Source of the DNA: Escherichia coli
GTDB lineage: Bacteria; Pseudomonadota; Gammaproteobacteria; Enterobacterales; Enterobacteriaceae
Assembly (NCBI GenBank): GCA_009729775.1
Contig: GCA_009729775.1_4081.1
DNA length: 64,000 bases
Strand: one strand, 5' to 3'
Position numbers and translations under genes: made by a program. This document shows positions 32,394-46,086 of this stretch, piece by piece. The notes under the pieces are model-generated. The model made no database searches. It worked only from the letters and a program-made list of their open reading frames with translations, and was not told where the DNA came from. The stretch's first letter is position 1. Every line of letters starts with the position of its first letter.

Positions 32394-32599
32394 AATTTAC
32401 TCTTTATATCTTCTATTAAAAATCGAATCCATTCTTCAACATAATCTTCCTGATGGTTTGTGTTCAGTACAGCCAACATGCGGATCTCTGCTCTTGCAAC
32501 TTCAATTTCAGTTTTAGGAAGGTCTTTGCTGATATCCACCATTAAGTCCATGTATTTCAAGATAAGTCCGAATGATTGGGTTCGTGTTATAGTTTTCAT
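32390..32599 (-). CDS. family B paralog
   Basis: motif AVLNTNHQEDYV. Confidence 0.65.
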   Translation of the reverse strand: MKTITRTQSFGLILKYMDLMVDISKDLPKTEIEVARAEIRMLAVLNTNHQEDYVEEWIRFLIEDIKSKL

Positions 32600-32796
32600 T
32601 GTTTCCTCGTGGACAATGTTTTATTTTTCAATGTATCCACATATTTCGTTACCCATGCATCCTGATAGTTAGTTCCCAATGTAATCAAAAGGTATAACTC
32701 CATTCGTTCTACGTGTGAGTCTGTATTATAAATCTTTGTGAAGTTTTTACGTAACAGTGCTTGATATTCTTTTTCGGTTAATTTACGCATTTTCAT
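32596..32796 (-). CDS. family B paralog
   Basis: motif ITLGTNYQDAWV. Confidence 0.7.
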   Translation of the reverse strand: MKMRKLTEKEYQALLRKNFTKIYNTDSHVERMELYLLITLGTNYQDAWVTKYVDTLKNKTLSTRKQ

Positions 32797-32990
32797 AGTT
32801 TACTCGTTACATCTTCAATTAAATACCAAATCCAATCGTTGACATACCTTTCCTGAAAGTTAGTTCCAATGAATAGTGCCATAATTAATTCACGCTTATA
32901 GGCAATACCACGGTCATGGGACTTATACATTATCATAGCCATGTTATTGATAAGTCTTTCGTGGTGTTCTGCTTGAGTTAAAATACGCAT
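32793..32990 (-). CDS. family B paralog (first gene of array)
   Basis: motif LFIGTNFQERYV; start set at internal Met (MRILTQ) with AAGGGAG RBS; the track start at 33020 would lie inside the promoter. Confidence 0.6.
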   Translation of the reverse strand: MRILTQAEHHERLINNMAMIMYKSHDRGIAYKRELIMALFIGTNFQERYVNDWIWYLIEDVTSKL

Positions 32991-33048: not shown

Positions 33049-33239
33049 TAACATTTTATTCGTAATACCCCTTTATCGAAGTCGCTAAGGTTACCCGCCC
33101 TTTAGCCCCCTACGCATTTTGCCATAGTCCAATCCCTTTTATTTCAAAAAAGTCAAGGGATTACCTATGCATTTTTTTAACGCATAATTTTAAAAACGCC
33201 TTGACTTTTTTCTGAATCAGTACTAGATCCCTTTACGCA

Positions 33240-33449
33240 TTAATCCTTCGTTACGCTAACGATTATCTGTGTATCCCCGTAGTCCTGCCATACTTCCACG
33301 CCATCCGTCGCCCTGGTTAGTCGTGCTGTCATCTGCTTAACAGTCTTAGGCTTTAGTGGAACCTGTTGCAGTACTGTACGCATAGCATCACTGACGTTAT
33401 CATGTACGCCAGCAATAGTACCTAGAACGCTGTATACTGTATAGAACAT
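33240..33449 (-). CDS. hypothetical protein
   Basis: 69 aa ORF. Confidence 0.5.
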   Translation of the reverse strand: MFYTVYSVLGTIAGVHDNVSDAMRTVLQQVPLKPKTVKQMTARLTRATDGVEVWQDYGDTQIIVSVTKD

Positions 33450-33517
33450 ATGTATGCCCTCCTGATATAGTTAAGGCCGCTAGAGAGCGGCCTATGATGT
33501 TTGGTGATGTGTAATGC

Positions 33518-33919
33518 TTATAGTCCTAAGATAGTGCGTGCTTCGTTACGTTCCGTCCATAGCTGCATGATGTGAGCAAGTAAGTCCTTACTAATGTATC
33601 CGGTGTTCATAGCTTCACGGATAGATACATCATAAGCACCGAACCCCGTGCGAACGATACGCACATCATTTAGGTTAGTGTTATAGATACCGCCAAGATC
33701 AACGGCTTCGAATACTGCATCAACTGAATACTCATTGTTACCATCGTTGAAGTTTTCTAGTGCAATAGTATTGGATACCGCCCAACGTTTGCAGTTTCCA
33801 ATGATGCGGCATTGTTCCGGTTGGAGAGTGCCATTACTTACAGCGTACTCCAGTGCATCTTTACCAAAAGTCCGAGCCAGTACTAAAACGTCAGCGAAGG
33901 AAGTGATTGAGAAGGTCAT
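33518..33919 (-). CDS. hypothetical protein
   Basis: start at MTFSITSF with GGAG RBS; track MVLP extension is translation of 5' hairpin. Confidence 0.6.
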   Translation of the reverse strand: MTFSITSFADVLVLARTFGKDALEYAVSNGTLQPEQCRIIGNCKRWAVSNTIALENFNDGNNEYSVDAVFEAVDLGGIYNTNLNDVRIVRTGFGAYDVSIREAMNTGYISKDLLAHIMQLWTERNEARTILGL

Positions 33920-33939
33920 GATAAAACTCCTTAATTTAG

Positions 33940-34010
33940 GAGGGAGAACCATTTCCCCCTCTCTATGTAAAACATTATACTTGATTCTAAGTACTATGCA
34001 AGTACTTTTT
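33940..34010 (-). promoter_or_regulatory. early promoter cassette: TTGCAT-16-TATAAT followed by GC-rich 5' hairpin
   Basis: reverse complement reads TTGCAT..TATAAT then GGGGGAAATGGTTCTCCC stem-loop then RBS. Confidence 0.55.
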
Positions 34011-34335
34011 ACATTTTAATACCTGGATTCAGGTAGCGGTGAGATCCGTATTCTGGATCTGTTTCGGTCCAGTACTGTAAATCTATAGTACCCTTTGCGT
34101 TAATCTTGTCTACTAGCTTATTCATCTTAGTGTAGACTACTTCGCTAGGGATGTAGTGTAATCCTTTATTATAGAAGTAGTGGTTAGCTTCACTATCGTT
34201 TAAGATATAGCGTGCACCGTTTGCGGTTTGTGCAACAATGAAAGAGTATTCTACTTCCCGATCATTACCATCAACAGTAATGCGGTCGAAATTGGTACGG
34301 ATGAAAGCTTTAACGATAGCGATTGAAGTACTCAT
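34009..34335 (-). CDS. hypothetical protein
   Basis: 108 aa ORF. Confidence 0.55.
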   Translation of the reverse strand: MSTSIAIVKAFIRTNFDRITVDGNDREVEYSFIVAQTANGARYILNDSEANHYFYNKGLHYIPSEVVYTKMNKLVDKINAKGTIDLQYWTETDPEYGSHRYLNPGIKM

Positions 34336-34469
34336 GGTGAATCTCCTAACTTTGTGGGCCGTCGCACCATTGCCGCCCTACGAGATACATTATTGCAGTA
34401 CTGATATACTTTGTCAATACTTTTTTTGAAATAGTTTTGAGTACTGGAATTACATCCACCAGCAGATAG

Positions 34470-34590
34470 TTACTCACCGTTATGAACTATCTTACAGATA
34501 CTTCTCTGCACCCTGTGGGCTAGTTTTTGTCTATGCGTATATAATAGCAAAGGGACTGACCGGAGTCAATCCCTTTTTTTATTCTTTTTT
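34470..34590. repeat. repeated intergenic composite element (GCACCCTGTGGGCTAG core and AAGGGACTGACCGGAGTCAATCCCTTTTTT hairpin)
   Basis: near-identical copies at about 36390-36510, 39760-39870, 43790-43920. Confidence 0.6.
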
Positions 34591-34591
34591 G

Positions 34592-34792
34592 TTAGATGAT
34601 TCTCCAATCTTCTACCAGGATTTTAATATACCGTACCAGTGATTCGAGTGATTCCACTTCCCGATAATCGGTAGCCGTTTGCACGGAACAAGTACAGCCG
34701 ATCAAGCCATTGCCAAGCTCTTTGATCTGTACATCGATGCAGTTGGCTTTTGCTTCATTCAGTACTGCAACCAATTCGTTAGCGATTGACAT
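34592..34792 (-). CDS. hypothetical protein
   Basis: 66 aa ORF with upstream promoter cassette. Confidence 0.5.
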   Translation of the reverse strand: MSIANELVAVLNEAKANCIDVQIKELGNGLIGCTCSVQTATDYREVESLESLVRYIKILVEDWRII

Positions 34793-34810
34793 AATGTTTT
34801 ACTCCTAAAG

Positions 34811-34875
34811 GTGCGGGAGAACTATTCCCCCGCTCTATGTAAAACATTATACATTATCTTGTAGTACTGTCAAAT
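34811..34875 (-). promoter_or_regulatory. early promoter cassette (TTGACA-16-TATAAT) and 5' hairpin
   Basis: reverse complement of intergenic region. Confidence 0.55.
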
Positions 34876-34880
34876 AGTTT

Positions 34881-35138
34881 TTATGAGATATCTTCGATAT
34901 AGTCGGCCCATGTCATTTGTTCAGTACTATCGAGTGCACCAGGATTATTTGGATCAAACCATTCGCCATCCCCTAAGTACATTGCAGCGGATACCGCTTT
35001 ATAGCCATTATAGGCGTTATTCCACTGCATAGCACGATAGATATGGCCTTTAATTGGTGTTAGTACTGGTAACGTTTTATGGTCTTCTACGTAGGCTGTA
35101 GCGATTGGATTTACCCGATACGTTTTGAACTGTTCCAT
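34881..35138 (-). CDS. hypothetical protein
   Basis: 85 aa ORF. Confidence 0.5.
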   Translation of the reverse strand: MEQFKTYRVNPIATAYVEDHKTLPVLTPIKGHIYRAMQWNNAYNGYKAVSAAMYLGDGEWFDPNNPGALDSTEQMTWADYIEDIS

Positions 35139-35212
35139 GATGTTTCCCCTTTAGTTAGTAAAGTTAATACAACAGTACTATCACGCATTGTCAATAGTAC
35201 TGAAATAAAACT

Positions 35213-35437
35213 TTAGATTAGATTATTGATGCCGTTGATGGTAGACTCGCTTTCTTCTTTCTCCCATTGGCGGTAATACTTCCATGCTTCATGATAGGTG
35301 GCGATCAGTTCATCTTTTTGATCCTGAGTACATGCCAGTACTGAATCACTGTAAGCGGTGTTATAGATAGAATCAAATGATTTCTTCTCTTCTGCCAGGG
35401 TAGCTACTTCCCGCATCAGTTCATCAAAGTTAGCCAT
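35213..35437 (-). CDS. hypothetical protein
   Basis: start at MANFDELM; track extension covers 5' hairpin. Confidence 0.55.
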   Translation of the reverse strand: MANFDELMREVATLAEEKKSFDSIYNTAYSDSVLACTQDQKDELIATYHEAWKYYRQWEKEESESTINGINNLI

Positions 35438-35454
35438 TTTAGTACTCCTTATTA

Positions 35455-35520
35455 GTGGGGGAGGATATCTCCCCCTATGCAAAACATTATACTTTGTTTT
35501 ACTTACAATGCAAGTACTTT
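35455..35520 (-). promoter_or_regulatory. early promoter cassette (TTGCAT-16-TATAAT) and hairpin GGGGGAG-atat-CCTCCCCC
   Basis: reverse complement of intergenic region. Confidence 0.55.
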
Positions 35521-35712
35521 TTAAATTTTATTTCCGATATAGTCCGGCCTGTTCTTTTCGGTCATACGCTTAAGCATTTTTTGCATATGGCTTATTGCTT
35601 GTAGTGTATCCTCTTCCAGCGATGAATCAAGATAATCAGGATCATTCTTCACCTTACAATGATTATGATAGCGTAGTACTGCCAGTACTTTTTTAACTTC
35701 TTCAACTGTCAT
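35521..35712 (-). CDS. hypothetical protein
   Basis: 63 aa ORF. Confidence 0.45.
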   Translation of the reverse strand: MTVEEVKKVLAVLRYHNHCKVKNDPDYLDSSLEEDTLQAISHMQKMLKRMTEKNRPDYIGNKI

Positions 35713-35981
35713 AATAAGTATTCCACTTCGTTTGCTTTCAGGTTAGTATCAATCATCAGTGGCTTTTTGTAGTCCACAAAACGATTAGTTTTTTCGATAG
35801 CGAAGCCCATATAATCCAGCTTGCTTACCGTGCATTCATTCTTAAAAACTTCTTTCGCTGCATTGATGGCTGATTGCAATGTTAACCGACCATCTAAGTT
35901 AATGTTTCCAAATGATCCACCAGCAGAAGTAGGATTACCGTTCATATCTTTAATGATCATAGTTGCGGAGTAGCTAGACAT
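35709..35981 (-). CDS. hypothetical protein
   Basis: 90 aa ORF. Confidence 0.55.
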   Translation of the reverse strand: MSSYSATMIIKDMNGNPTSAGGSFGNINLDGRLTLQSAINAAKEVFKNECTVSKLDYMGFAIEKTNRFVDYKKPLMIDTNLKANEVEYLL

Positions 35982-36002
35982 AATTTTGTTTCCTTTTAGT
36001 AT

Positions 36003-36062
36003 CGGGGAGAACTATTCTCCCCTTGATGTAAACTATTATACAGTACTGATATACTTTGTCAA
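36003..36062 (-). promoter_or_regulatory. early promoter cassette (TTGACA-16-TATAAT) and hairpin GGGGAGAA-tagt-TCTCCCC
   Basis: reverse complement of intergenic region. Confidence 0.55.
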
Positions 36063-36065
36063 TAC

Positions 36066-36287
36066 TTAATTACGTTTAAAATGATATGTACCTTTATCAT
36101 CCTGTACGCCCCATACTGATTTACCATCAACGCCAGTGAAGCCGGATTGCAATTCAATATGGAAACCATTATTATCAACTACAAAAACTTTTTTATTTTC
36201 ATCCCGATAACATTGATATTCTGAATCAACATTAAAGGCCGCATCATTCAGAAGATTGGAAGCGTAAATGCAAGTCATTGTAGTCAT
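36066..36287 (-). CDS. hypothetical protein
   Basis: start at MTTMTCIY; track MVLP extension is hairpin. Confidence 0.55.
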   Translation of the reverse strand: MTTMTCIYASNLLNDAAFNVDSEYQCYRDENKKVFVVDNNGFHIELQSGFTGVDGKSVWGVQDDKGTYHFKRN

Positions 36288-36389
36288 GATTTTATTCCTT
36301 ATTCTTTGAGGGAGAACCATTTCCCCCTCTCGATATAAAACATTATACTTGATTCTAAGTACAATGCAAGTACTTTTTTAAAAATAGTT

Positions 36390-36510
36390 TTCAGTACTGA
36401 ATACTTATATAATAGATACACTTCCGCACCCTATGGGTCAGTGAGTTATCTCTCAATGAATATATAATAGCAAAGGGACTGACTGGAGTCAATCCCTTTT
36501 TTAATCTTTT
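36390..36510. repeat. repeated intergenic composite element, copy 2
   Basis: as above. Confidence 0.6.
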
Positions 36511-37095
36511 TTATCGTGTTATAGTTATCGCGTTAACATCACGTTTTTTATAGTACTGATTCCAGATATTGCGGGTTAAACCGTAATCAAGTACTTTAAT
36601 CAAGCCGTTGCGATCCTGGCCGATATTCTGTTTTCTGATATCTCTTATCGTTAGTGTGGATAATGTATCATCAACGTGATTGAGAGCATCAGCGAAATGG
36701 TGATGGCGTTCAATAGTGTTACGTTTAATATTGTACTTTAACTCATTACATGCGGTTACGTGCTTTACACTGCCTTTGCTTGCAGTACTCAAACGATCCA
36801 TAACAATAAACAGATTATCAGGATCGCATAAATGCATATGCACCTTGGCAAAGAACTGTTTAAGGTGCGGACGGTCATAATCTAAAAAATTCCATACCTT
36901 ACATTCAGTTTCATTTTGTTCTACACCCGCATCACAATTCGCGACCTTAATCACTAACCGATCATTTAAAGCGAATACAATACGGGAAGAACCCGCACCG
37001 ACGATCTCCAGTCCAGCTAACCGACAAGCTGAAAGGATCTCTTTGTTGGTTTCCATTGCATGAAGTGAACGGATGAATTTAGTATAGTTACGCAT
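36511..37095 (-). CDS. putative protein kinase-like protein
   Basis: Gly-rich loop GAGSSRIV, VIKV lysine, IRDIRKQN (HRD-like), DYG (DFG-like); start at MRNYTKF with GGAG RBS. Confidence 0.45.
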   Translation of the reverse strand: MRNYTKFIRSLHAMETNKEILSACRLAGLEIVGAGSSRIVFALNDRLVIKVANCDAGVEQNETECKVWNFLDYDRPHLKQFFAKVHMHLCDPDNLFIVMDRLSTASKGSVKHVTACNELKYNIKRNTIERHHHFADALNHVDDTLSTLTIRDIRKQNIGQDRNGLIKVLDYGLTRNIWNQYYKKRDVNAITITR

Positions 37096-37126
37096 TGTGT
37101 TGACTCCTTGAGTTAATGAAACTATA

Positions 37127-37369
37127 TTACAGTACTTTACTATCAATGGCAACTACTTTTTTTACTTGAACTGCGTGGAATACTTCACGCGTATTTTTAG
37201 TACTGAATACTTTTGCCGTACCTTGTTCGACCGCAATACGATAGCGACCGTTAACGTCCACCATGTTGATAAAGTCCGGTGTACTGAATGGAGTTACCCG
37301 GCATTTAAGAACGGTTAACAGTTCCACCAGCGTGGTAGTCTCTTTGATACGTTTTTCTAAAGTAATCAT
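37127..37369 (-). CDS. hypothetical protein
   Basis: start at MITLEKRIKE downstream of TTGACA-17-TACTAT. Confidence 0.5.
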   Translation of the reverse strand: MITLEKRIKETTTLVELLTVLKCRVTPFSTPDFINMVDVNGRYRIAVEQGTAKVFSTKNTREVFHAVQVKKVVAIDSKVL

Positions 37370-37426
37370 TTTGTTTTCCCCGTGTTGGTATGCATTCATA
37401 GTACTAAAACATTTGAGTACTGTCAA

Positions 37427-37645
37427 TTAGATAATAGAATATTTCTTTAGTGATAATGCGTCTTCTGTCGGTTGATATTCTACACCGTTCCCGTTATCAA
37501 CCTTAGTGAGTAAACCTTTATCAATGAGTTTTTTGATGGTACGGTTTCCCTGTTGAAAACTAGTGAAGTGTGAATCATTACGAAAGGTATAACCGTGCTT
37601 CACTGCTTCATCAATAGTTTTCTTTTCGATTTTAGATAATTTCAT
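37427..37645 (-). CDS. hypothetical protein
   Basis: 72 aa ORF. Confidence 0.5.
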   Translation of the reverse strand: MKLSKIEKKTIDEAVKHGYTFRNDSHFTSFQQGNRTIKKLIDKGLLTKVDNGNGVEYQPTEDALSLKKYSII

Positions 37646-37703
37646 TTTGTTTCTCTCTCTCTGTGTTGGTATAGATACATAATACTAAAACATTTGAGTA
37701 CTG

Positions 37704-37958
37704 TCAACGTGATATTAGTTTTATTTTTTTATTGTATTGTTGGTGTTCATATAGATTAATTTTTCCAGTACTCTCGATCACTATTCTATTGTTAGTGTCT
37801 ACATCGATAACACGTAGTTTCCCGTTGCTTAACTTCCTAGGCAATAGACTACCATTAATAAACTCATTAGCAAGCTGTACGGCCTTTGTGATGATTCTCT
37901 GTGGTGCTTTATAGTGTACCCGCAAGATATTATCTTTAGATAGTTGTACCTTCATCAT
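37704..37958 (-). CDS. hypothetical protein
   Basis: 84 aa basic ORF. Confidence 0.5.
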   Translation of the reverse strand: MMKVQLSKDNILRVHYKAPQRIITKAVQLANEFINGSLLPRKLSNGKLRVIDVDTNNRIVIESTGKINLYEHQQYNKKIKLISR

Positions 37959-37973
37959 TTTAGTTTATCCTAT

Positions 37974-37998
37974 AAAAAAGGCGGGAACTGAACCCGCC
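37974..37998 (-). terminator. rho-independent terminator
   Basis: GGCGGG-aactgaa-CCCGCC hairpin followed by U-tract on minus strand, after stop of 38022..38426. Confidence 0.55.
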
Positions 37999-38021
37999 GT
38001 GTTGTTAGTACTGCAAAGTTA

Positions 38022-38417
38022 TTAGATAACCTGGCGGCGTTTACTGTATACTGTTACACGGTTTCCTTTACGGTCATGACGGATCTCTTTCTGGTTACGA
38101 ATCAGTTCACTTGGACGCTTAAGGTTTGCCAGGTGATCCGCGTGAGTCCATGCATTACTATTCACTTGTACTTGAATATCAGAACCTTCCAAGAAGTCAT
38201 CTTGAGCGTTCAGTACTTCAGCCAGTTCTTGAGCTTTCTTCAGTTCTGCTTCAGTAAGTACTGGTTCAGGTGAATTCACAATATCAGAGATCTCTTTGAA
38301 CTGTACCGCCCAGCGTTGTCCTTTCGGTGCATCTTTGCCCATGTCTTTAAATGTTTCACCTTCTTCACGGGCAACGATGCGAGCTTGTTCACGGGTAGCG
38401 AAGAATTTAGTAATCAT
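38022..38417 (-). CDS. hypothetical protein, paralog of 50213..50479
   Basis: shared FATREQARIVAREEGETFKDMG and HDRKGNRVTVYS segments. Confidence 0.6.
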   Translation of the reverse strand: MITKFFATREQARIVAREEGETFKDMGKDAPKGQRWAVQFKEISDIVNSPEPVLTEAELKKAQELAEVLNAQDDFLEGSDIQVQVNSNAWTHADHLANLKRPSELIRNQKEIRHDRKGNRVTVYSKRRQVI

Positions 38418-38516
38418 GGTGTACATCCTATTAGTTAAGTTAATTAGTACTACAAGTTAGAGTCTATTATAAAGTACTATCTGGGTAATGTCAAATAGTA
38501 CTTTAAATGGATTCTA

Positions 38517-38840
38517 TTACATGTCTTTCTTACGTTTTACATCGTAGTAACGAACTGTAATTTCTTTGTTGATCTCTTCCTCAATTCTGTGTAGTACTTT
38601 CTCTTTCGGGTTGAAACCTATTACAGTTTCTTTAATGATCTCCAAGCCCGTGTATTCGCCTTGTGTACCGTAACCGTAAGTAAAGGTTTCATGTCCCAGG
38701 TCTTCCCAGCGGTCACCAATCAATGCAGACACGTAGCATGAGTGGTAAGTATTGCCGTGGCTATCAGTCCACCGATTAACTTTAATGTCAAAGGAAGTTA
38801 CAATTTTCATTTCTACTTTCTGGGTAAGGATCATAGCCAT
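38517..38840 (-). CDS. hypothetical protein, paralog of 45141..45485
   Basis: shared GNTY, YGYG and C-terminal VKRKKD motifs. Confidence 0.6.
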   Translation of the reverse strand: MAMILTQKVEMKIVTSFDIKVNRWTDSHGNTYHSCYVSALIGDRWEDLGHETFTYGYGTQGEYTGLEIIKETVIGFNPKEKVLHRIEEEINKEITVRYYDVKRKKDM

Positions 38841-38861
38841 TTTAATTTCTCTCTTTTAGTT

Positions 38862-38927
38862 AGGAGGGGAACCATTCCCCTGCCTTGATGTAAACTATTA
38901 TACAGTACTAAGATACTTTGTCAATAC
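38862..38927 (-). promoter_or_regulatory. early promoter cassette (TTGACA..TATAAT) and 5' hairpin
   Basis: reverse complement of intergenic region. Confidence 0.5.
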
Positions 38928-39129
38928 TTATTTGTTTTCTTTTCGTAATTTCTTTTCAGCTTCAACTACATTCTTATTTGTGCAAACTACTTCATCGGAT
39001 AAATCTAACTTCCATCCAGACAGGGGTTTGGTTTGTTTCTTTGCTGCTTTGTTCGCTTTCATGATGTTTCCTTTTTAATTAAGATGTAAACTATTATACA
39101 GTACTAAGATACTTTGTCAATCTATTTTA

Positions 39130-39330
39130 TTAGATAGTTTCCCATTTCATGTTACCCGCTTTACGCTGTGAAACAGGAATAAACATGTTATTAATGTTAC
39201 TAATATAACCGACCTGTAAGTCACGCTGTGAACCATATGCCCGACTTGCTGCATTTTTAGCACCGCGTTCTGATTTATAAACGCCGCTGGATACTGTAAA
39301 GCCTACTACACCGAAAGTAAAATGTTTCAT
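39130..39330 (-). CDS. hypothetical protein
   Basis: 66 aa ORF; two tandem promoters upstream. Confidence 0.5.
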   Translation of the reverse strand: MKHFTFGVVGFTVSSGVYKSERGAKNAASRAYGSQRDLQVGYISNINNMFIPVSQRKAGNMKWETI

Positions 39331-39524
39331 TTTGTATTCCTCTTTGTGGTTGATGTAAGTATTATACTCGTTTACTTTCTATTGTCAATCTTTTTTATCA
39401 GGGGAGTTTTTCGTATGTCTTACTCCTGGACTACTTAACGGGGTTACTTGTTTCGTTCCCCGTCCTGATGTAAAACATTATACTTGATTCTAAGTACAAT
39501 GCAAGTACTTTTTAAAAATAGTTT

Positions 39525-39689
39525 TCACTTACTCATATTAACAGGCTTAAACGGTGGCAATGTAAGATCATGCGGGGTTAAACTGTCATGCTTTGCCCAC
39601 ATACCAGAATCCCTACGGAATAATACCTTATTGTTTTTTATACGATAAAAGTTACCATTATCAGTGTTTTTATACCATACCATTTTCAT
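39525..39689 (-). CDS. hypothetical small protein (not in ORF track, below 60 aa)
   Basis: 54 aa ORF MKMVWYKNTDNG... with TTGCAA-16-TATAAT and GGAG RBS upstream. Confidence 0.4.
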   Translation of the reverse strand: MKMVWYKNTDNGNFYRIKNNKVLFRRDSGMWAKHDSLTPHDLTLPPFKPVNMSK

Positions 39690-39759
39690 TTACTCCTGGT
39701 TATGTCGTTATTAAACATTATACGGGGTTATAGATAGTTTGCAATTAGTTTTTCAGTAC

Positions 39760-39870
39760 TAGCCACCAGCATATAATAGATACATTTATGCACCCTGTGG
39801 GCTGATTTGTTTCTATGCGTATATAATAGCAAAGGGACTGACCGGAGTCAATCCCTTTTTTAATTCTTTT
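39760..39870. repeat. repeated intergenic composite element, copy 3
   Basis: as above. Confidence 0.6.
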
Positions 39871-40019
39871 TAAACTTGTTTTGGGTTGCGATATGTGATA
39901 GCGTTCGGGTACATTTGTTTAATGTTATTCCATGCCTGGTTAACATTGTAACCACTTGAGCGAATCAGTTGGTTACTACCGACACCTTGAAACACTACTT
40001 CGAATAAGAATTCTTTCAT
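39870..40019 (-). CDS. hypothetical small protein (below track cutoff)
   Basis: about 49 aa ORF MKEFLFEVVFQG...; ATGA overlap with upstream ORF. Confidence 0.3.
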   Translation of the reverse strand: MKEFLFEVVFQGVGSNQLIRSSGYNVNQAWNNIKQMYPNAITYRNPKQV

Positions 40020-40189
40020 GCTTTCACCTCGCGATCTGCTTTACCTTTACGCCACGCTGTTGCTAATTGTTCGCGTTGCCATAAGTCGAGTGATACGTAA
40101 AGTTTTGCATTATCACCCTTCGGATACTCGCCAGTAGTACCAATCCGATAAAACAGATCTTTCAGTACTGATAATTCCACCTGGATCAT
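40016..40189 (-). CDS. hypothetical small protein (below track cutoff)
   Basis: about 57 aa ORF MIQVELSVLKDL... Confidence 0.3.
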   Translation of the reverse strand: MIQVELSVLKDLFYRIGTTGEYPKGDNAKLYVSLDLWQREQLATAWRKGKADREVKA

Positions 40190-40297
40190 TGTATTACTCC
40201 TGATTGTGTTAGTACTTCTACGATGGCATGAATGATCATAAGTACAGCTAACACAACAATCATCGGATTCATTTGCATAAGCTGTACTCCTTATATA

Positions 40298-40510
40298 TTA
40301 ATCTTTCAGCCAATGATCTTGAATGAATTTTTCACAGAATCCCTGTTTCATAGATTCTAACAGGCGTTCACGGTGAGCGGCGGCATATTGCTCAGTACTA
40401 TGCGTTACGCCAGGTTGATAACGTGAAACACCGTCTGGTCCGATATATTGAACATCCCACGGTTTTTCGTTAGTATCAGACCATTTACGAACGATTAGTT
40501 GACCTTGCAT
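40298..40510 (-). CDS. hypothetical protein
   Basis: 70 aa ORF with promoter cassette and AGAGGA RBS. Confidence 0.55.
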   Translation of the reverse strand: MQGQLIVRKWSDTNEKPWDVQYIGPDGVSRYQPGVTHSTEQYAAAHRERLLESMKQGFCEKFIQDHWLKD

Positions 40511-40527
40511 GTTTCTTTCCTCTTAGT

Positions 40528-40587
40528 GGGGAGAATCATTTCTCCCCTTCATGTAACTTATTATACAGTACTAGATTACATTGTCAA
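40528..40587 (-). promoter_or_regulatory. early promoter cassette (TTGACA-16-TATAAT) and hairpin GGGGAGAA-tcat-TTCTCCCC
   Basis: -35 at 40582-40587, -10 at 40560-40565, hairpin 40528-40547 (coordinates on plus strand). Confidence 0.6.
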
Positions 40588-40593
40588 TAGTTT

Positions 40594-40917
40594 TTATTCA
40601 CCTTGTTTGAATATAGTTTTCTCCATTGATTCCATGATTGCAACCAATACAGCATGGATCTCACTTAACGCGGCATCACTAAAAGCATTAATGAATAGGC
40701 AATCATTCTCGCGAATATTTTTAATGTACTTATCAGCAGTGGTTGCGAATTCATTCAACGGCAGATCAAATGCTTTATCCCATAATGGATGGCGTAACTG
40801 TAACAGTACTGGATTATCACGGTCACCAGGTGAGAAAGTGCCTGTAATGAAACATACACCAGGGATACTTTCGAATTGACAACGAACTTCTTTTGTGATA
40901 GTAGTATGAATATACAT
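40594..40917 (-). CDS. hypothetical protein
   Basis: 107 aa ORF. Confidence 0.55.
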   Translation of the reverse strand: MYIHTTITKEVRCQFESIPGVCFITGTFSPGDRDNPVLLQLRHPLWDKAFDLPLNEFATTADKYIKNIRENDCLFINAFSDAALSEIHAVLVAIMESMEKTIFKQGE

Positions 40918-40944
40918 TTATTTTTATCCTCTATTAAATTAATA

Positions 40945-41133
40945 TTACAGTTTATGAATCAATTCTTTATCCAAGCGATAGCGAACATTATTGATTGTAA
41001 CTGCATTGTTTTTAATGCTACGCTGTACAGGTCCACCAGCAATAACAAACGTTGCCTTATTGCCCCGAACGATGATAGCACTTCCAGGATTACCGAAATC
41101 ATCTTGTACTAAAATGCTTGATAAGTTTTGCAT
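40945..41133 (-). CDS. hypothetical protein
   Basis: 62 aa ORF. Confidence 0.45.
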   Translation of the reverse strand: MQNLSSILVQDDFGNPGSAIIVRGNKATFVIAGGPVQRSIKNNAVTINNVRYRLDKELIHKL

Positions 41134-41149
41134 TTGTCTTTCCTTGTAG

Positions 41150-41208
41150 TGGGGAGAACTATTCTCCCCTTCATGTAAACAATTATACAGTACTGAAAAC
41201 TAATTGCA
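41150..41208 (-). promoter_or_regulatory. early promoter cassette (TTGCAA..TATAAT) and hairpin
   Basis: reverse complement of intergenic region. Confidence 0.5.
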
Positions 41209-41212
41209 AGTA

Positions 41213-41569
41213 CTATGATAAAATCATTATAGGATATTCACTATCAATCAGTACTTCAAAACCAAAACTTTCATACCATTCTTTAAGATTAAATGAGTTA
41301 TCTTCTCCCGTATCGCATTCTAAGATGATACAATCTGAATCATCGGCCGCATCAATAAAGGCATTCATTAATTCAGTACCTTCACCGTTACCGCGATTAT
41401 CGGGATCAACATAAAGAGAATCAATAAACGCTACACGATCATAATCAAGATCTGGTGCAACAATGCCACGTTTAACAAACCAGTACTGCAATTGTGCTAC
41501 TTTGCCTTGTACTTGATAGCCAGTGATCTCACCATTGTCTGTAGTACGCGTGATATGTTGTATACCCAT
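41213..41569 (-). CDS. possible GNAT-like acetyltransferase (weak)
   Basis: segment VAFIDSLYVDPDNRGNGEGTELMNAFIDAA resembles GNAT acetyl-CoA binding motif. Confidence 0.35.
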   Translation of the reverse strand: MGIQHITRTTDNGEITGYQVQGKVAQLQYWFVKRGIVAPDLDYDRVAFIDSLYVDPDNRGNGEGTELMNAFIDAADDSDCIILECDTGEDNSFNLKEWYESFGFEVLIDSEYPIMILS

Positions 41570-41632
41570 GATTTCAATCCTCAGTTAAGATATAAAATAT
41601 TATACACTAACTAACAGTACTGTCAATACTTT

Positions 41633-41890
41633 TTATCTCATAGATCTATGCCAACAATTACGCGGTTGACGTTTAAAAATACTATCATGATCCTCCTGGC
41701 AAGTTATGCAGTACTTACATCCCTTAACGGCCTGGCGACGTTTCTCAGGGATTATATCACCGCAGTCGAGGCAATGTATCAGTGATTCTATTTGTGCGTT
41801 AATTTGCGTTCTAGCGTGGTTAACAGCGGCCTGAATCACTGCGTTAATCTCGTCTTGCTCGGCCCCATCTTTCGTGAATCCTACAGCCAT
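41633..41890 (-). CDS. TraR/DksA-family C4 zinc-finger protein
   Basis: CLDC-x17-CITCQ (C-x2-C-x17-C-x2-C) signature in 85 aa protein. Confidence 0.6.
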   Translation of the reverse strand: MAVGFTKDGAEQDEINAVIQAAVNHARTQINAQIESLIHCLDCGDIIPEKRRQAVKGCKYCITCQEDHDSIFKRQPRNCWHRSMR

Positions 41891-42119
41891 TATTTTAACC
41901 TCATTATAAAAATACTATAGTACTGTAATGCGACAATAATATTACTTGTTCTTACTTTTTCCAATCCACATGATACAACATATTCATCCCCATATGTTCG
42001 AAACGAAACACCATGAAAATTTTTATACACTTGCACTTCTAATCATAACCTTTTGTCTAACCAACTGCGTAGAATTATACTACTTTACGCAAATTGATCA
42101 AGTATTGATCAGATCATTT

Positions 42120-42200
42120 TTTGATCAATATTATACAGTTACATTTGTGCACCCTATGGGTTAGTGCCTTGTGTCCGGCTTATGTACTTATTATACAGTA
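42120..42200. repeat. variant element with GCACCCTATGGG core and CCGGCTT hairpin
   Basis: similar to 50110-50200. Confidence 0.4.
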
Positions 42201-42221
42201 CTTGATGATATTGTCAATAGT

Positions 42222-42419
42222 TTATTTTAATTTTTTTCTGTCATTGATTAATGCTTTCAGTACTATACTAATAACTTGCAATGATTCATCAATGACTATA
42301 AAATTATTTTCTTTCATTAGATGATAGTTACCATTGATTGTATATTCTAATGAGTACTGTTTACGTTTAATTTTTGATAATGTATCAATTTGTTTTTGTA
42401 CTGATTTCATGCTAATCAT
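42222..42419 (-). CDS. hypothetical protein
   Basis: 65 aa ORF. Confidence 0.45.
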   Translation of the reverse strand: MISMKSVQKQIDTLSKIKRKQYSLEYTINGNYHLMKENNFIVIDESLQVISIVLKALINDRKKLK

Positions 42420-42526
42420 TGTTAAACGTCCTGTAATGCATTCTAACGAGATAAACGGTTTAGTACTGGCATTGTATAGGGTAAATGATTAAAGCCCACC
42501 AGCGTTAACCAGTGGGCTATAATCTT

Positions 42527-42670
42527 ACATCTTGCGGATAATCTTAACAGTATCTTTCACCGATTTACCGTCTTGCTGACATTGTTCGATCATCGCGTAT
42601 TGTTCTGCGGTCAGATCCTCGCCAGTTTTTGCCAGTACTGCGTCGATGAATGAATCCAGTGCGATCATTT
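42527..42670 (-). CDS. hypothetical small protein (below track cutoff)
   Basis: 47 aa ORF MIALDSFIDAVLAK... Confidence 0.3.
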
Positions 42671-42767
42671 TATTTCTCTCTTAGGTTAAGTTAACTACTG
42701 TTGATAAAAGTTATTATACAGTACTATCAAACATTGTCAATAGATTTAATAGTACTGGTAATATATT

Positions 42768-42947
42768 TTAGCGGTAATCGTCGTATGCTTTATTAACCTG
42801 GCGAATGTAACTTTCAAAGGCTTCGTCTACCGTTTCATACTCCCGAACATAATCACCATAGGAAACTACATACATCCCTTTTTGATCTTCAAACGTCATG
42901 ATGATAGAATCCAGTCCGATGATTTCAGTTTTTGCGATAATAGCCAT
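42768..42947 (-). CDS. hypothetical protein
   Basis: start at MAIIAKTEI; repeated promoter cassette upstream. Confidence 0.5.
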   Translation of the reverse strand: MAIIAKTEIIGLDSIIMTFEDQKGMYVVSYGDYVREYETVDEAFESYIRQVNKAYDDYR

Positions 42948-43038
42948 TTTAGTATTCCTTAAATTAATATGCGTTGTCTTGATAAAAGTTATTATGCCAG
43001 TACTATCAAACGTTGTCAATAGTACTGTGATAATATTT

Positions 43039-43251
43039 TTAGTTAATGATAGTCAGTGTAAAATTGTAATCCCCTGCCTGGTATAGTACTTTATCGCCGA
43101 ACGTGCCAACACGTTTCATATTGCAATAGATACCCATAACATTTTTTACATCTTTGATATTCCGAACGCCAGTGATATCCTTGTTGAAATTTTCATGATC
43201 AGAAAATAAAACTTGTTTTGCATTTTTCAGTACAGTGCAGATATTAGCCAT
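43039..43251 (-). CDS. hypothetical protein
   Basis: 70 aa ORF. Confidence 0.5.
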   Translation of the reverse strand: MANICTVLKNAKQVLFSDHENFNKDITGVRNIKDVKNVMGIYCNMKRVGTFGDKVLYQAGDYNFTLTIIN

Positions 43252-43270
43252 TTCGATTTCTCTCTGTTAG

Positions 43271-43338
43271 TAGGGAAGTACTGTTACTTCCCGTGCCTTG
43301 ATGTAAACTATTATACAGTACTATAATCTATTGTCAAA
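43271..43338 (-). promoter_or_regulatory. early promoter cassette (TTGACA-16-TATAAT) and hairpin GGGAAGTA-acag-TACTTCCC
   Basis: reverse complement of intergenic region. Confidence 0.5.
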
Positions 43339-43351
43339 CTATTTTTTAATA

Positions 43352-43693
43352 TTATTCAAAATCTTCTGGACCGGACTGATAATCATCCTCACCGTATGCA
43401 CTTTCTAACTTCTCGCCAGTGTAATCATCAGTTAGTGAGTCATCCTCATAGTTCACGTCTACGCCCGTGATGTAAAACTGGCTATCGTCTGGATCATTGA
43501 AATTAATTTTCTGAATGTTTACAATAACTGTATTGATACCCAGGACACAGCCATCAGCCGTTACAAAGTACTGATATTTTTCACATCCACCACTATTGAA
43601 ACCGTAATTGATTTCGGCCCGACCATCATTTAAACGCAGTGCCTGAGCGATGATTTCGTTTTCAAAGTTAGATTGAGCAATTGCAATAGTCAT
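43352..43693 (-). CDS. hypothetical acidic protein
   Basis: 113 aa ORF. Confidence 0.55.
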   Translation of the reverse strand: MTIAIAQSNFENEIIAQALRLNDGRAEINYGFNSGGCEKYQYFVTADGCVLGINTVIVNIQKINFNDPDDSQFYITGVDVNYEDDSLTDDYTGEKLESAYGEDDYQSGPEDFE

Positions 43694-43789
43694 GATTCGT
43701 TTCCTTATTACCAGGGGAAACCGTTTCCCCTTGCGATGTAAAACATTATACGCCTATTGATATAGTTTGCAAGTACTTTTTATCAAATA

Positions 43790-43920
43790 CTTTAAAATAG
43801 TTTTCAGTACTCAATCATTATACAATAGATACACTTATGCACCCTGTGGGCTAGTGAGCTATCTCTCAATGAATACATAATAGCAAAATGGCTGACCGAA
43901 GTCAACCACTTTTTTTCATT
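43790..43920. repeat. repeated intergenic composite element, copy 4 (more diverged hairpin)
   Basis: as above. Confidence 0.5.
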
Positions 43921-44054
43921 TATTTTTAGCTTTTAGAATCGCCGCCTTTCGCGTCATGCCTTGCTTGATGTACTCCTTTACTTTCGCTTTACGTGCTTTC
44001 GCTTTATCTGCTTTCGTTTTAGGAGTACTGTAAATTAAACCGTTAGGATTCATT
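43917..44054 (-). CDS. hypothetical small basic protein (below track cutoff)
   Basis: 45 aa Lys-rich ORF MNPNGLIYSTPKTKADKAKARKAK... Confidence 0.3.
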
Positions 44055-44139
44055 TAAATCACCATAAAGAATAGATAGGTTACTAACAATGCCGCCAGTA
44101 CTGCACCGACCAGGGCCGAACTATAGTAAGCTAATGATT

Positions 44140-44292
44140 TCATTTTTTAGCCTGAAAGTAATGTTTAATTTGTGCGGCGGTCAGTGCACAATTACGCAGG
44201 AAGTTTTCTGTATAACTTTTACGAGTACTGAAAGAGTACTGACCTTTCCCGTTACCGATAGTAACATCAAACCGAGCGTTATATTGTTTCAT
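44140..44292 (-). CDS. hypothetical small protein
   Basis: start at MKQYNARFD; track MVLP extension is hairpin. Confidence 0.45.
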   Translation of the reverse strand: MKQYNARFDVTIGNGKGQYSFSTRKSYTENFLRNCALTAAQIKHYFQAKK

Positions 44293-44309
44293 TTTGTTTC
44301 TCCTAGTAT

Positions 44310-44382
44310 CGGGGAGAACCATTCCCCCCCTCTATGTAAACAATTATACAGTACTGAAAACTAATTGCAAGTACTTTCTAAG
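44310..44382 (-). promoter_or_regulatory. early promoter cassette (TTGCAA..TATAAT) and 5' hairpin
   Basis: reverse complement of intergenic region. Confidence 0.5.
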
Positions 44383-44567
44383 TAATGTTTATAAGCTGAA
44401 TCAACCACTCTTTCGATAACATACGCTAACGGCACGTATCCAACTACATGACTACAATAAAAAGGACTACGATTAGAATCATCGTATGCAAATACTTTTT
44501 CAGGATCTGCATCAATCACATACATATTAACCTTTAAGATGTCTATCTTATCCTGTACAGTAAGCAT
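44361..44567 (-). CDS. hypothetical protein
   Basis: start at MLTVQDK; upstream part of track ORF overlaps another small ORF in a different frame. Confidence 0.45.
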   Translation of the reverse strand: MLTVQDKIDILKVNMYVIDADPEKVFAYDDSNRSPFYCSHVVGYVPLAYVIERVVDSAYKHYLESTCN

Positions 44568-44571
44568 ATTA

Positions 44572-44742
44572 CGCCGCCTTATCAGTACTGGCAACCGGAC
44601 GGATACGGGCCATTTCATGGGCTTGTTCCACACTGTAACGCTCATAAAGGCGGCATTCTTCCGGTGTAGGAACAGCATCAATACGTTTCATTGGTTTAAT
44701 GATGCTTTCAACTTCATTCAGTACTTGATTAACGTTCATGGT
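44572..44742 (-). CDS. hypothetical small protein (below track cutoff)
   Basis: 56 aa ORF MNVNQVLNEVES..., stop 2 nt before next ATG. Confidence 0.35.
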
Positions 44743-44790
44743 ATAATCCCCAATATAAGCGGCCTAAATCGACCGCTAACGATGTTTTGA

Positions 44791-45060
44791 TTAATAGGTG
44801 TATGGTTGACGCTCAAACAATGATTGCACGTTGTACGCCCCGCTAATGGGCTTTGCTGGCAAATCAATTTTATATTGTTCACGCTTAAAAATAATAAAAC
44901 GGCAATTGTTTTTAACATCAAAATTGATTGAACGTTCCAATAGCTTTCCTTCGTGTACAAATACAAGATAACCGCTTGCTACTTGTTTTGTAGTACTGGT
45001 TGCAACCATTGACCGACGAACATGAGTACCTGCATCGATTAAAGTACTGATATTTTTCAT
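44791..45060 (-). CDS. hypothetical protein
   Basis: 89 aa ORF. Confidence 0.5.
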   Translation of the reverse strand: MKNISTLIDAGTHVRRSMVATSTTKQVASGYLVFVHEGKLLERSINFDVKNNCRFIIFKREQYKIDLPAKPISGAYNVQSLFERQPYTY

Positions 45061-45140
45061 TTTACTATCCTCTTAATTTGATTTAATTTCTTTCCCCTAT
45101 GCAGACACTATATCAAAGTATCTGCATAAAGTAAAGCTAA

Positions 45141-45485
45141 TTAAAGATCTTTTTTGCGTTTAACATCAGTTACCGAACTGTAAACAGTGATATTATTGTC
45201 ACGGCAAAAACGGGAAAGATAAGAACCGCGTAAAAACTCTTTATCTTCCATATTAATAACCTTGCTAAATTCTTCCATTGCTACAGTGTCAAAGTGATCC
45301 CCGTATCCATATTGGAACGGCACGTTTACTACTTCAATAAAATTACCATCAATTTCTACGTCTACACTTAAAGAGAAATAAGTGTTACCATATGAAGCCT
45401 GGAACCAACGCCGAGCGGCAATATGTACAACTTCAACAGAAGACAGGTTGATATTTTGTGCTGAGATAGTGTTGATGTTAGCCAT
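45141..45485 (-). CDS. hypothetical protein, paralog of 38517..38840
   Basis: shared motifs, C-terminal VKRKKDL. Confidence 0.6.
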   Translation of the reverse strand: MANINTISAQNINLSSVEVVHIAARRWFQASYGNTYFSLSVDVEIDGNFIEVVNVPFQYGYGDHFDTVAMEEFSKVINMEDKEFLRGSYLSRFCRDNNITVYSSVTDVKRKKDL

Positions 45486-45566
45486 TTTAATTTCCTCTTA
45501 GTTGTCTTGATAAAATCTATTATGCCAGTACTATCAAACTATGTCAATAGTACTGTGATAATAATT

Positions 45567-45779
45567 TTACTTACTTTGCTTTGATGCTTTATGTTGTGCA
45601 ACTGCCATCACTACATCAGCACGAACAAAGTTAGCAACCGTATCAGTATAATATTTGATTGCATCGTCAATATCTGCGAACATCCGATACATTCCGCACC
45701 ATGATACTTTATAACCCGCTTTCACTTGTTCCAGTTTAACCAGTGAATTGTTTACTTTGATTTTTGTAATGATAGCCAT
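45567..45779 (-). CDS. hypothetical protein
   Basis: 70 aa ORF, N-terminus MAIITK similar to 42768..42947. Confidence 0.5.
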   Translation of the reverse strand: MAIITKIKVNNSLVKLEQVKAGYKVSWCGMYRMFADIDDAIKYYTDTVANFVRADVVMAVAQHKASKQSK

Positions 45780-45862
45780 TTTTGTTTCCTCTTAGTTGTC
45801 TTGATAAAATCTATTATGCCAGTACTATCAATCTATGTCAATAGTACTGTGATAATAATTTT

Positions 45863-46006
45863 ACTTACTTTTTGCTTTCTTTATTGCTTCCACCTGGTCG
45901 GCCCACTCTTTACCCCATACTTGAGCGTTATAGTGATACTGACAAAGAGCAACGCCCCGTTTCAAACCAGTGATAGATTTTTTACCACATTGACAAGTTT
46001 TCATTT
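45863..46006 (-). CDS. hypothetical small Cys-containing protein (below track cutoff)
   Basis: 47 aa ORF MKTCQCGKKS...CQYH with its own promoter-hairpin cassette and RBS. Confidence 0.4.
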
Positions 46007-46020
46007 TTAGTTTCCTCTTA

Positions 46021-46086
46021 GTGGGGAGAATCATTTCTCCCCTTGATGTAATGTATTATACTTTATCCGATTTACTTTGCAAGTAC
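46021..46086 (-). promoter_or_regulatory. early promoter cassette (TTGCAA..TATAAT) and hairpin GGGGAGAA-tcat-TTCTCCCC
   Basis: reverse complement of intergenic region. Confidence 0.5.

Follow-up and report, generated by a model that had tools for sequence, protein, structure and literature searches.

A 64,000-nucleotide stretch of DNA from contig GCA_009729775.1_4081.1 of an assembly filed under Escherichia coli (GCA_009729775.1), referred to here as the window, carries a short intergenic element that recurs between positions 34,492 and 51,862. With high confidence, this element is a two-hairpin early RNA unit that issues from a strong sigma70-type promoter in the terminal repeat of a jumbo phage, and the RNA motif is previously undescribed. 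Read on the sense strand, the copies share one layout, in which a sigma70-type promoter is followed by a start A and two further nucleotides, a first hairpin (P1), a linker, a second hairpin (P2), the dinucleotide GC, a purine-rich tetramer, and the downstream motif UNNRUCYRU. The original prediction offered four identities for the element, including a conserved mRNA leader, a small RNA (sRNA), and a bidirectional terminator-promoter module. Leader and sRNA proved to be the right family, whereas the terminator-promoter module covers only a subset of copies and leaves the conserved core unexplained, because its terminator hairpin is present in only four of the nine copies in the window.

Covariation and RNA architecture

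A covariance model was built from 17 copies and searched in the window and 18 related loci, giving 97 matches, of which 80 are distinct and come from at least five phage genera. Among these 80 sequences, standard pairs fill 95.3% of pair cells as against 74.0% after shuffling (none of 500 shuffles reached the observed value), and pairing falls to 22-54% when the partners are slid by 1 to 3 columns. P1 is made up of 3 to 5 covarying base pairs and an A-rich, purine-rich loop (GAGAAA, GCGAAA, AGAUAA, AGAACAA), which has a GNRA-like beginning but is 6-8 nt long and heterogeneous. Double-sided changes are found in all four P1 pairs, in 121 cells in total, giving stems as different as UGAG/CUCA, GGAG/CUCC, AGCA/UGCU, ACCAC/GUGGU, GCCG/CGGC, and ACAAA/UUUGU. 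A linker of 2-5 nt (consensus UA, about 3) leads to P2, which reads (G/A)CCC, a loop of 3-4 nt, and GGGU, followed by an invariant GC. Within P2 the three C-G pairs hardly ever change; the helix is closed by G·U in 39 copies and by A-U in 37, the innermost C-G is replaced by U-A in two lineages, and the loop sequence is free (ACA, AUA, AUU, ACC, or the four-nucleotide forms UAUA, UAGA, UCAA, and UUUA). Both helices were also predicted by RNAalifold from the model-fitted alignment A2. The check by alignment and covariation suggested with the original prediction was therefore clearly positive for RNA structure.

The transcribed strand carries 54 G·U wobbles, compared with four A·C or C·A pairs, which would be wobbles of the other strand. 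Taken with the covariation and the strand of the promoter, this asymmetry identifies the sense transcript as the structured molecule. The core first described, GCACCCTGTGGGCTAG, is antisense to this strand, its GCACCC..GGGCT being the antisense of P2, and had been read on the wrong strand. Several single-sequence minimum-energy folds also join the downstream UAUCU to the 5' end or the P1 loop in a long-range helix or pseudoknot. This candidate was rejected by partner permutation, in which the longest complementary run was 4.88 versus 4.89 and the duplex energy -4.45 versus -4.15 kcal/mol (p ~0.06).

Promoter and predicted start site

Promoters were scored in 85 distinct copies. On the sense strand the mean is 10.3 of 12, with a score of at least 9 in 80 copies. 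The -35 box is TTGACA or TTGACT in 71 copies, the spacer is 17 nt in 63, and the -10 box ends exactly 8 nt 5' of P1 in 58. The promoter and P1 are separated by about 8 nt that end in CAT or CAA. The predicted start is always an A preceded by C, and from this start in its CA context P1 therefore begins at +3; P2 begins at about +22. The annotation of phage fHe-Yen9-03 independently has the -35 and -10 boxes at the same places. The minus-strand TTGACT-17-TATTAT of the original prediction, with its -35 within a hairpin, was confirmed in four copies, where it also has a TG extension; TTGACA promoters with a CAGTACTG spacer serve other copies.

A plus-sense sRNA that starts at TATAATAGATACA, runs through GCACCC..GGGCT, and ends at an AAGGGAC...CCCTTTTTT terminator is scarcely credible. 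Three window copies do have TTTTCA-16-TATAAT or TACAAT before the core, and 6-7 T come after the hairpin on the plus strand, but the plus-sense promoter score averages 6.0 of 12 over the 85 copies against 5.4 at random positions. Most copies also lack the hairpin, and the 54 wobble pairs become A·C mismatches on the plus strand. The ATG of a plus-sense mini open reading frame (ORF), MHPVG*, is present in only 14 of the 85 copies, and that candidate was rejected for this reason. As for TATAATAGATACA, which had been placed in all copies, it is exact only at 36408 and 39772 and is replaced elsewhere by TACAATAGATACA, TCATATAGATACA, or CTTACAGATACT. It is the antisense of the conserved motif 3' of P2, and as a plus-sense promoter it was rejected because it scores at the level of random positions. 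A late promoter was rejected as well. In antisense the downstream motif reads TATAGATA, similar to the T4 late TATAAATA, but the strand test opposes this assignment and the clade has a different late motif, ATAAATA, which precedes structural genes (PMC5259590).

The terminal repeat and the distribution of the element

At 88-96% identity, the 34-44 kb part of the window aligns with jumbo phages of E. coli from the 121Q/PBECO4/G17 group (Asteriusvirus), and the region is hyperplastic, since any one relative covers only 45-57% of this 10-kb stretch. The termini of the related phage fEgEco12 have been determined experimentally, and its direct terminal repeat is 20,993 bp (PMC13070987). Mapped on the window, position 1 of that genome falls at 52,911 and position 19,500 at 34,586, which therefore places the terminal repeat at about 33,090-52,911 (about 20 kb) with all copies wholly within it. 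Every copy in phage CBB likewise lies inside the annotated 22,456-bp terminal repeat, and the complete TH47 genome (352 kb) has 10 model matches, all within 16 kb. The ORFs of the window between 33 and 52 kb are small and on the minus strand, those flanking the copies encoding 40-200 aa.

Searching the core in related genomes, another suggestion of the original prediction, was productive, as BLAST found the element in 111 phage records, at 472 places. The matches inspected are in Asteriusvirus, RaK2/K64-1, GAP32/CBB, Munch, fHe-Yen9-03, Serratia BF, and Erwinia relatives; the 121-nt query also has matches in Vibrio and Brochothrix phages, which lie beyond the inspected set. An identical P2 recurs in Asteriusvirus, Alcyoneusvirus, Mimasvirus, Eneladusvirus, and uncultured relatives, whereas P1 stems differ within one genome, and this combination argues for selection and not homogenisation. 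Two scans of IMG/VR gave true matches only in Rak2-like contigs of 345-378 kb and in one 109-kb contig, fifteen further contigs being chance matches.

For host mimicry, blastn against 5,426 E. coli genomes gave no match, in a search that is insensitive below about 20 nt. Rfam 15 at gathering thresholds had no match over the whole window; in E-value mode, three matches between 33.5 and 52.5 kb (E 2.1-3.8) fell far under the gathering scores, none of them over the P1-P2 core, and one of these sub-threshold matches (36471-36601) overlaps the terminator hairpin of copy 2. ARAGORN found no tRNA or tmRNA, and a literature search with the core strings returned only unrelated primer sequences. Two terminal-repeat noncoding RNAs of the related Pseudomonas phage PA5oct, ncRNA001 and ncRNA002, were considered as counterparts and set aside, as the motif is absent from them. 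A pattern search of the 352-kb TH47 genome for P2-like hairpins yielded no isolated translational operator, its other matches being one palindromic terminator and a site at 177,166. At 7117-7145, far from the repeat region, TH47 has the perfect palindrome GCACCCATTGGGTGC, with an A-run on one side and a T-rich tract on the other; it shares GCACCC/GGGTGC arms with the core and looks like a bidirectional terminator.

Copies in the window

The pattern GCACCCTRTGGGYYAG, allowing up to 3 mismatches, has 10 matches in the window against 0.57 expected, a number reached in none of 100 shuffles. Eight of the 10 have at most 2 mismatches, and two good matches, at 48320 and 51831, are on the opposite strand. 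The covariance model recovers nine copies. All six sites named in the original prediction exist, and three plus-strand copies had been overlooked. The copies are as follows, with a promoter given as its -35 box, spacer length, and -10 box.

34492-34576, minus strand: copy 1 (model match 34492-34534). Hairpin 34550-34575 containing the -35; promoter TTGACT-17-TATTAT 34541-34569; predicted start A 34534; weak P1 (UAG/CUA); P2 34510-34520, with GC to 34508; downstream motif 34492-34507; second promoter 34389-34417, then a gene at 34009-34335.

36410-36499, minus strand: copy 2 (model match 36410-36463). Hairpin 36473-36498; promoter 36464-36492; predicted start A 36457; P1 36442-36455 (UGAG/AGAUAA/CUCA); P2 36428-36438 (ACCC-AUA-GGGU), then GC; downstream motif 36410-36425; gene downstream at 36066-36320.

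39774-39858, minus strand: copy 3 (model match 39774-39822). Hairpin 39832-39857; promoter 39823-39851; predicted start A 39816; A-rich segment with no clear P1 stem; P2 39792-39802; downstream motif 39774-39789; second promoter 39717-39744, then a gene at 39525-39689.

42133-42217, minus strand: copy 4 (model match 42133-42187). No terminator hairpin; promoter TTGACA-16-TATAAT 42190-42217; predicted start A 42183; P1 42165-42179 (GCC/GGACACAA/GGC); P2 42151-42161; downstream motif 42133-42148; promoter downstream at 42074-42101, then an ORF at 41890-42036 (GTG start, 48 aa) and a DksA/TraR-like ORF at 41633-41890.

43823-43912, minus strand: copy 5 (model match 43823-43876). Diverged hairpin 43886-43912; promoter 43877-43905; predicted start A 43870; P1 43855-43868 (UGAG/AGAUAG/CUCA); P2 43841-43851; downstream motif 43823-43838; second promoter 43745-43772, then a gene at 43352-43693.

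50123-50206, minus strand: copy 6 (model match 50123-50177). Promoter TTGACC-17-GATAAT 50178-50206; predicted start A 50171; P1 50155-50169; P2 50141-50151; downstream motif 50123-50138; promoters downstream at 50064-50091 and 49946-49973, and a gene at 49302-49913.

48267-48405, plus strand: copy 7 (model match 48298-48351), stand-alone and antisense to the surrounding genes. TG-extended promoter TTGACA-17-CATAAT 48267-48295; predicted start A 48302; P1 48306-48319 (GAC/GAGAUA/GUC); P2 48323-48333; downstream motif 48336-48351; shared terminator hairpin GGGGATCAATTGATCCCC 48376-48393, then a U-rich tail; predicted sRNA of about 95-100 nt.

51564-51647, plus strand: copy 8, a weak variant (17 bits; model match 51594-51647). 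Promoter TTGACT-16-TATAAT 51564-51591; predicted start A 51598; P1 51602-51615 (CGC/GAGAAA/GCG); variant P2 51619-51629 (CCCC-AGG-GGGU, then GG); the copy faces the physical genome end at a distance of about 1.3 kb.

51779-51862, plus strand: copy 9 (model match 51809-51862). Promoter TTGCTT-16-TATAAT 51779-51806; predicted start A 51813; P1 51817-51830 (AGUC/GAGAAA/GACU); P2 51834-51844 (GCCC-ACC-GGGU); downstream motif 51847-51862; further plus-strand promoter 51904-51932; the copy faces the physical genome end near 52,911.

Two neighbouring genes deserve mention. The unit behind copy 4 includes the 85-aa ORF at 41633-41890 (minus strand), which encodes a DksA/TraR C4 zinc finger (PF01258, E = 1.6e-10) and is a candidate early modulator of host RNA polymerase. 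For the ORF at 36511-37152, the match to a protein kinase is weak and below threshold.

Copies 8 and 9 and the third plus-strand promoter are all directed at the physical end, toward a segment of about 1.8 kb (51,315-53,164) without a credible ORF. This segment includes the equivalent of the physical left genome end of fEgEco12, at about 52,911, so that the window spans the junction of the terminal repeat and the genome right end. Short repeats of the TAGCCGT/CCAGAC type lie inside it at about 52,030-52,160, and the segment may serve the genome end, an origin, or packaging. Immediately beyond the terminal repeat, repeats of 40-54 nt at spacings of about 210-920 bp (30,016-32,891) correspond to the tandem, paralogue-like ORFs g057-g063 of fEgEco12, of about 70 aa each.

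The terminator hairpin and its likeness to PeSL cassettes

Four window copies, joined by 17 distinct versions elsewhere, have the -35 TTGAC in the 5' arm of a hairpin that is flanked by an A-tract and a T-tract and whose outer stem covaries. The hairpin is optional, being found in about a quarter of all copies. The original prediction's view of this hairpin, AAGGGACTGACCGGAGTCAATCCCTT, as terminator-like on the plus strand holds at 34550-34575, 36473-36498, and 39832-39857, and for the diverged form at 43886-43912; it does not extend to the other window copies. The annotations of phages G17 and GAP32 also treat the hairpin as the terminator of the preceding gene. In this subset, hairpin and promoter together are a PeSL-like terminator-promoter cassette, its termination activity being predicted from the sequence.

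PeSL are cassettes of T4-type phages that join a sigma70 early promoter to a stem-loop, with the form A3-4G3-loop-C3T3-4 in phage nt-1, and to which recombination and mini-circle formation are attributed (PMC2839356, PMC4122927). The likeness is considerable. Each is a composite unit between genes, pairing a near-consensus sigma70 early promoter with a G/C-tract stem-loop that ends upstream transcription, in the present case by prediction, both are repeated many times amid small ORFan genes in a hyperplastic region, and the AAAGGG...CCCTTT found here fits the nt-1 stem-loop. In contrast, PeSL are defined by promoter and stem-loop with no conserved structured leader described, whereas here the transcribed P1-P2 is invariant and the stem-loop optional, and the carriers are Rak2-like jumbo phages, distant relatives of T4.

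It is rather improbable that the element as a whole works at the DNA level, as a PeSL-like insulator and recombination substrate that shuffles small ORFs, with the core CCCACAGGGTGC as an operator or recombination site, or as a gene-converted one, and with P1 as a generic 5' stabiliser. The terminator and promoter part fits the PeSL description down to the nt-1-like A3G3-loop-C3T3 stem-loop, the hyperplastic region shares only about 50% with relatives, and a 5' hairpin is also found at other promoters of the repeat. Against this stand the P2 loops of 3 or 4 nt, which with their free sequence fit a hairpin and not a double-stranded DNA operator, and the strand-specific G·U pairs, also unexpected for a duplex operator. 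P2 is invariant across genera while its flanks and P1 vary within a genome, the opposite of what gene conversion would give, and the distance from P2 to the start is fixed even though promoter types differ. REP/BIME elements (REPIN) are likewise short intergenic imperfect palindromes, often in inverted pairs beside gene 3' ends. Unlike them, the copies described here are locked to promoters of varying type at a fixed distance, are confined to one 16-20 kb region, and have no GTAG head.

A second repeat family, on the minus strand between 33,938 and 52,554, has 13 copies (e.g., 44307-44377, 47854-47924, and 48637-48707). It consists of a TTGCAA/TTGACA-16-TATAAT promoter, a G/C-tract hairpin of the GGGGAGAACCATTCCCCC type a few nucleotides past the start, a ribosome-binding site, and a start codon, and looks like the standard early mRNA 5' end of the phage. 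The RB49-type PeSL resembles this family, but the hairpin of the second family is downstream of the promoter.

Genomic contexts of the copies

Eighty-two distinct contexts were tallied. Convergent pairs, with fixed gaps of 14, 25, or 32 nt, make up 24 of them. A further 13 are single units antisense to the local genes that run into a terminator hairpin 13-16 nt past the end of the model; these use the back side of the neighbouring gene's terminator, and in the examples examined a U-rich tract is present on the sense strand too. These 13 contexts are predicted to be sRNA genes of about 95 nt, each with its own promoter and intrinsic terminator; copy 7 (48267-48405) exemplifies them in the window. 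Contexts without a gene, ending in a terminator or a convergent twin, thus amount to 37 of the 82 (~45%), and the remainder, over half, lie 76-270 nt upstream of a same-strand ORF. In the window, another strong promoter follows each co-directional copy, and many promoters of the terminal repeat bear their own 5' hairpin and ribosome-binding site. Given the gene-less units and the further promoters before genes, the motif is independent of a downstream gene. In the CBB genome, the coding sequence CBB_7 (33531-33704) occupies the exact site of a convergent motif pair (33585-33638, plus strand; 33652-33705, minus strand); it is the sole opposite-strand coding sequence annotated in that part of the CBB terminal repeat and is probably a spurious gene call.

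These contexts bear directly on a purely cis-acting mRNA leader, in which P1-P2 would stabilise the downstream mRNA or control its translation, for instance by providing a ribosome standby site in the Shine-Dalgarno-like GGGUG or GGAG. The position of over half of the copies before a same-strand ORF fits such a leader, as do those two motifs and the placement of P1 at +3, well sited for 5'-end protection. On the other hand, the co-directional copies in the window all precede another strong promoter, some with its own 5' hairpin and ribosome-binding site, and because that promoter lies between, the downstream gene does not depend on the element. There is no downstream gene at all in the 37 contexts noted above. 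A fitting ATG, GTG, or TTG start codon is found in only 46 of the 85 copies and opens ORFs of 1-30 codons, and the mini-ORF MYL* in the RNA sense was rejected as not conserved. We regard this explanation as improbable, at roughly one chance in ten.

Processive antitermination or anti-pausing in cis, in the manner of HK022 put or of lambda nut and N, would have the nascent P1-P2 stay on RNA polymerase through terminators. The put RNA binds the beta' zinc-binding domain of RNA polymerase. Like put, the motif is a two-hairpin RNA directly 3' of a phage early promoter used by host RNA polymerase, its adjacent hairpins running from +3. putL likewise starts at the 5' end of its transcript (PMC9378689). 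The region is also dense in terminators, and the P1 loops are GNRA-like in the manner of boxB. Nevertheless, a terminator lies about 30 nt past P2 in the 13 single units, and the 24 convergent pairs have nothing to read into. These terminators and convergent twins, lying immediately 3' of the motif, weaken the case for antitermination, as does the lack of boxA (CGCUCUUA or UGCUCUUUA), found in none of the 85 copies; the repeat has no N-like arginine-rich ORF and there is no similarity to an Rfam family. The put RNA differs further in being about 70 nt long, with a triple helix and two copies, each before a long operon, whereas the motif here is about 35-50 nt, has about 10 copies, is in 37 of 82 contexts followed by a terminator or twin with no gene beyond, which is not a read-through position, and shows no sequence similarity to put detectable in the Rfam scan of the region. 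The lambda nut system shares a small early-leader hairpin with a purine-rich loop, the loops being kept while the stems vary; the P1 loops begin in GNRA fashion but run to 6-8 nt and are heterogeneous. P2 reverses the boxB pattern, being the invariant hairpin yet having a variable loop. On balance, we consider this mechanism quite unlikely.

The stand-alone copies raise a further alternative, a sibling family of base-pairing sRNAs in which the seed would be the opened P2 or the GC-RRRR-UGUAUCUAU segment and P1 and the terminator would serve as stability or chaperone modules. Such copies do have a promoter, a structured 5' part, an AU-rich single strand, and a terminator with a U-rich tail, and Qrr and OmrA/B are known multi-copy sRNA families with one shared conserved segment. 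But the most conserved segment of the motif appears to be paired, as judged from the G·U or A-U closing pair, the compensatory U-A, and the free loop length; the downstream motif is degenerate (GUAUCU, CCGUCU, CUGUCC); and searches limited to the window and the rest of the 352-kb TH47 genome found no complementary target there. We therefore think base pairing unlikely, though it deserves to be kept in mind. With Qrr, OmrA/B, and the CsrA sponges CsrB and RsmY, the element shares a short conserved RNA module in many copies, driven by strong promoters and partly in the form of free sRNAs with terminators. It differs from them in having one site per RNA, with copy number achieved through gene number, and from the CsrA sponges in having no GGA sites.

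Other repeated sequences of the region

A three-copy repeat of 125 nt (42925-43049, 45453-45577, and 45747-45871; 66-89% identity) holds a TTGACA-17-CATAAT promoter between inverted CAGTACT sites. Two minus-strand terminators, 46773-46794 and 47500-47521, are almost identical in their stem, AGCCCAC...GTGGGCT, with TTTTTTGTTTT after it. About 22 occurrences of the palindrome AGTACT are expected in the window, but it is present 253 times, most densely at 32-56 kb, and CAGTACTG occurs 60 times. In the 352-kb TH47 genome AGTACT is found 917 times against 119 expected, an excess that is genome-wide and highest in the terminal repeat; no such enrichment is seen for other AT-rich palindromes. AGTACT stands directly 5' of -10 boxes (CAGTACTG-TATAAT, CCAGTACTGGCATAAT), overlaps -35 boxes (AAGTACTTGCAA), and lies 12-30 nt 3' of most motif copies. 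It may be a protein-binding or promoter-architecture signal; the CBB paper makes no mention of the enrichment.

Proposed function

The reading that we favour, at somewhat below an even chance, is that P1-P2 is an immediate-early protein-binding RNA that acts as a decoy or a recruiter. An invariant stem with its 3' GC and a free loop points to sequence-specific recognition of the P2 hairpin by a protein, and about 10 copies under strong immediate-early promoters, many in gene-less units, suggest an RNA that acts by binding a partner. Host RNA polymerase would make the P1-P2 RNA in the first minutes of infection. A hairpin 2 nt from the 5' end guards RNA from 5'-end-dependent decay, 5' stem-loops such as that of the ompA leader being established cases of this effect, and P1, from +3, could shield the 5' end in this way. 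P2 would then be read sequence-specifically by a conserved enterobacterial factor or by a phage early protein. The roughly 10 copies per repeat, about doubled in the virion, where the repeat is present twice, would yield a multi-copy decoy or recruiter RNA, and the same tag on mRNA leaders could bring the same partner to those transcripts. More doubtful is the specific proposal of a host-takeover RNA, with a free form of about 95 nt and an early-mRNA tag, that sequesters or redirects a protein conserved in Enterobacterales, such as a decay or chaperone factor, a defence sensor, or RNA polymerase.

Several points weigh against a protein-binding RNA. The non-template DNA strand is identical in sequence to the RNA and is indistinguishable from it by the tests applied here. 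P2 has only 4 bp and a nearly invariant stem, such that the case for pairing comes from its closing pair, two double changes, and the variation in loop length, and single-sequence folding energies are unremarkable (z-scores of -0.1 to -2.5). As over half of the copies are upstream of genes, a purely cis role is compatible with the data. A literature search returned no transcript, 5'-end, or 3'-end data for any phage of the clade, and the starts and ends given here are predictions. Among possible phage partners, tblastn against TH47 found no homologue of Hfq, CsrA, ProQ, RfaH, NusG, lambda N, T4 RegA, T4 RegB, or CspA, a weak negative, and a search at 33-56 kb, which includes the repeat, found no ORF with an arginine-rich N-like motif. 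To our knowledge, the motif bears no convincing similarity to CsrA sites (P2 has no GGA), ops/RfaH, CRISPR repeats of types I-E, I-F, and I-C, ToxI, or boxC.

Implications

Phages of the Rak2/121Q-like jumbo group are candidates for therapy, and a literature search turned up no transcript maps for them. The element gives a map of predicted immediate-early starts in the terminal repeat and adds an RNA family, supported by covariation, that is absent from Rfam. Should the partner prove trivial, the motif would still serve annotation. The invariant P2 hairpin is a defined bait for the binding partner, and if that partner is a host factor or a defence protein, the element would be an RNA-based takeover or counter-defence device conserved over phages of E. 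coli, Klebsiella, Salmonella, Cronobacter, Pectobacterium, Yersinia, Serratia, and Erwinia.

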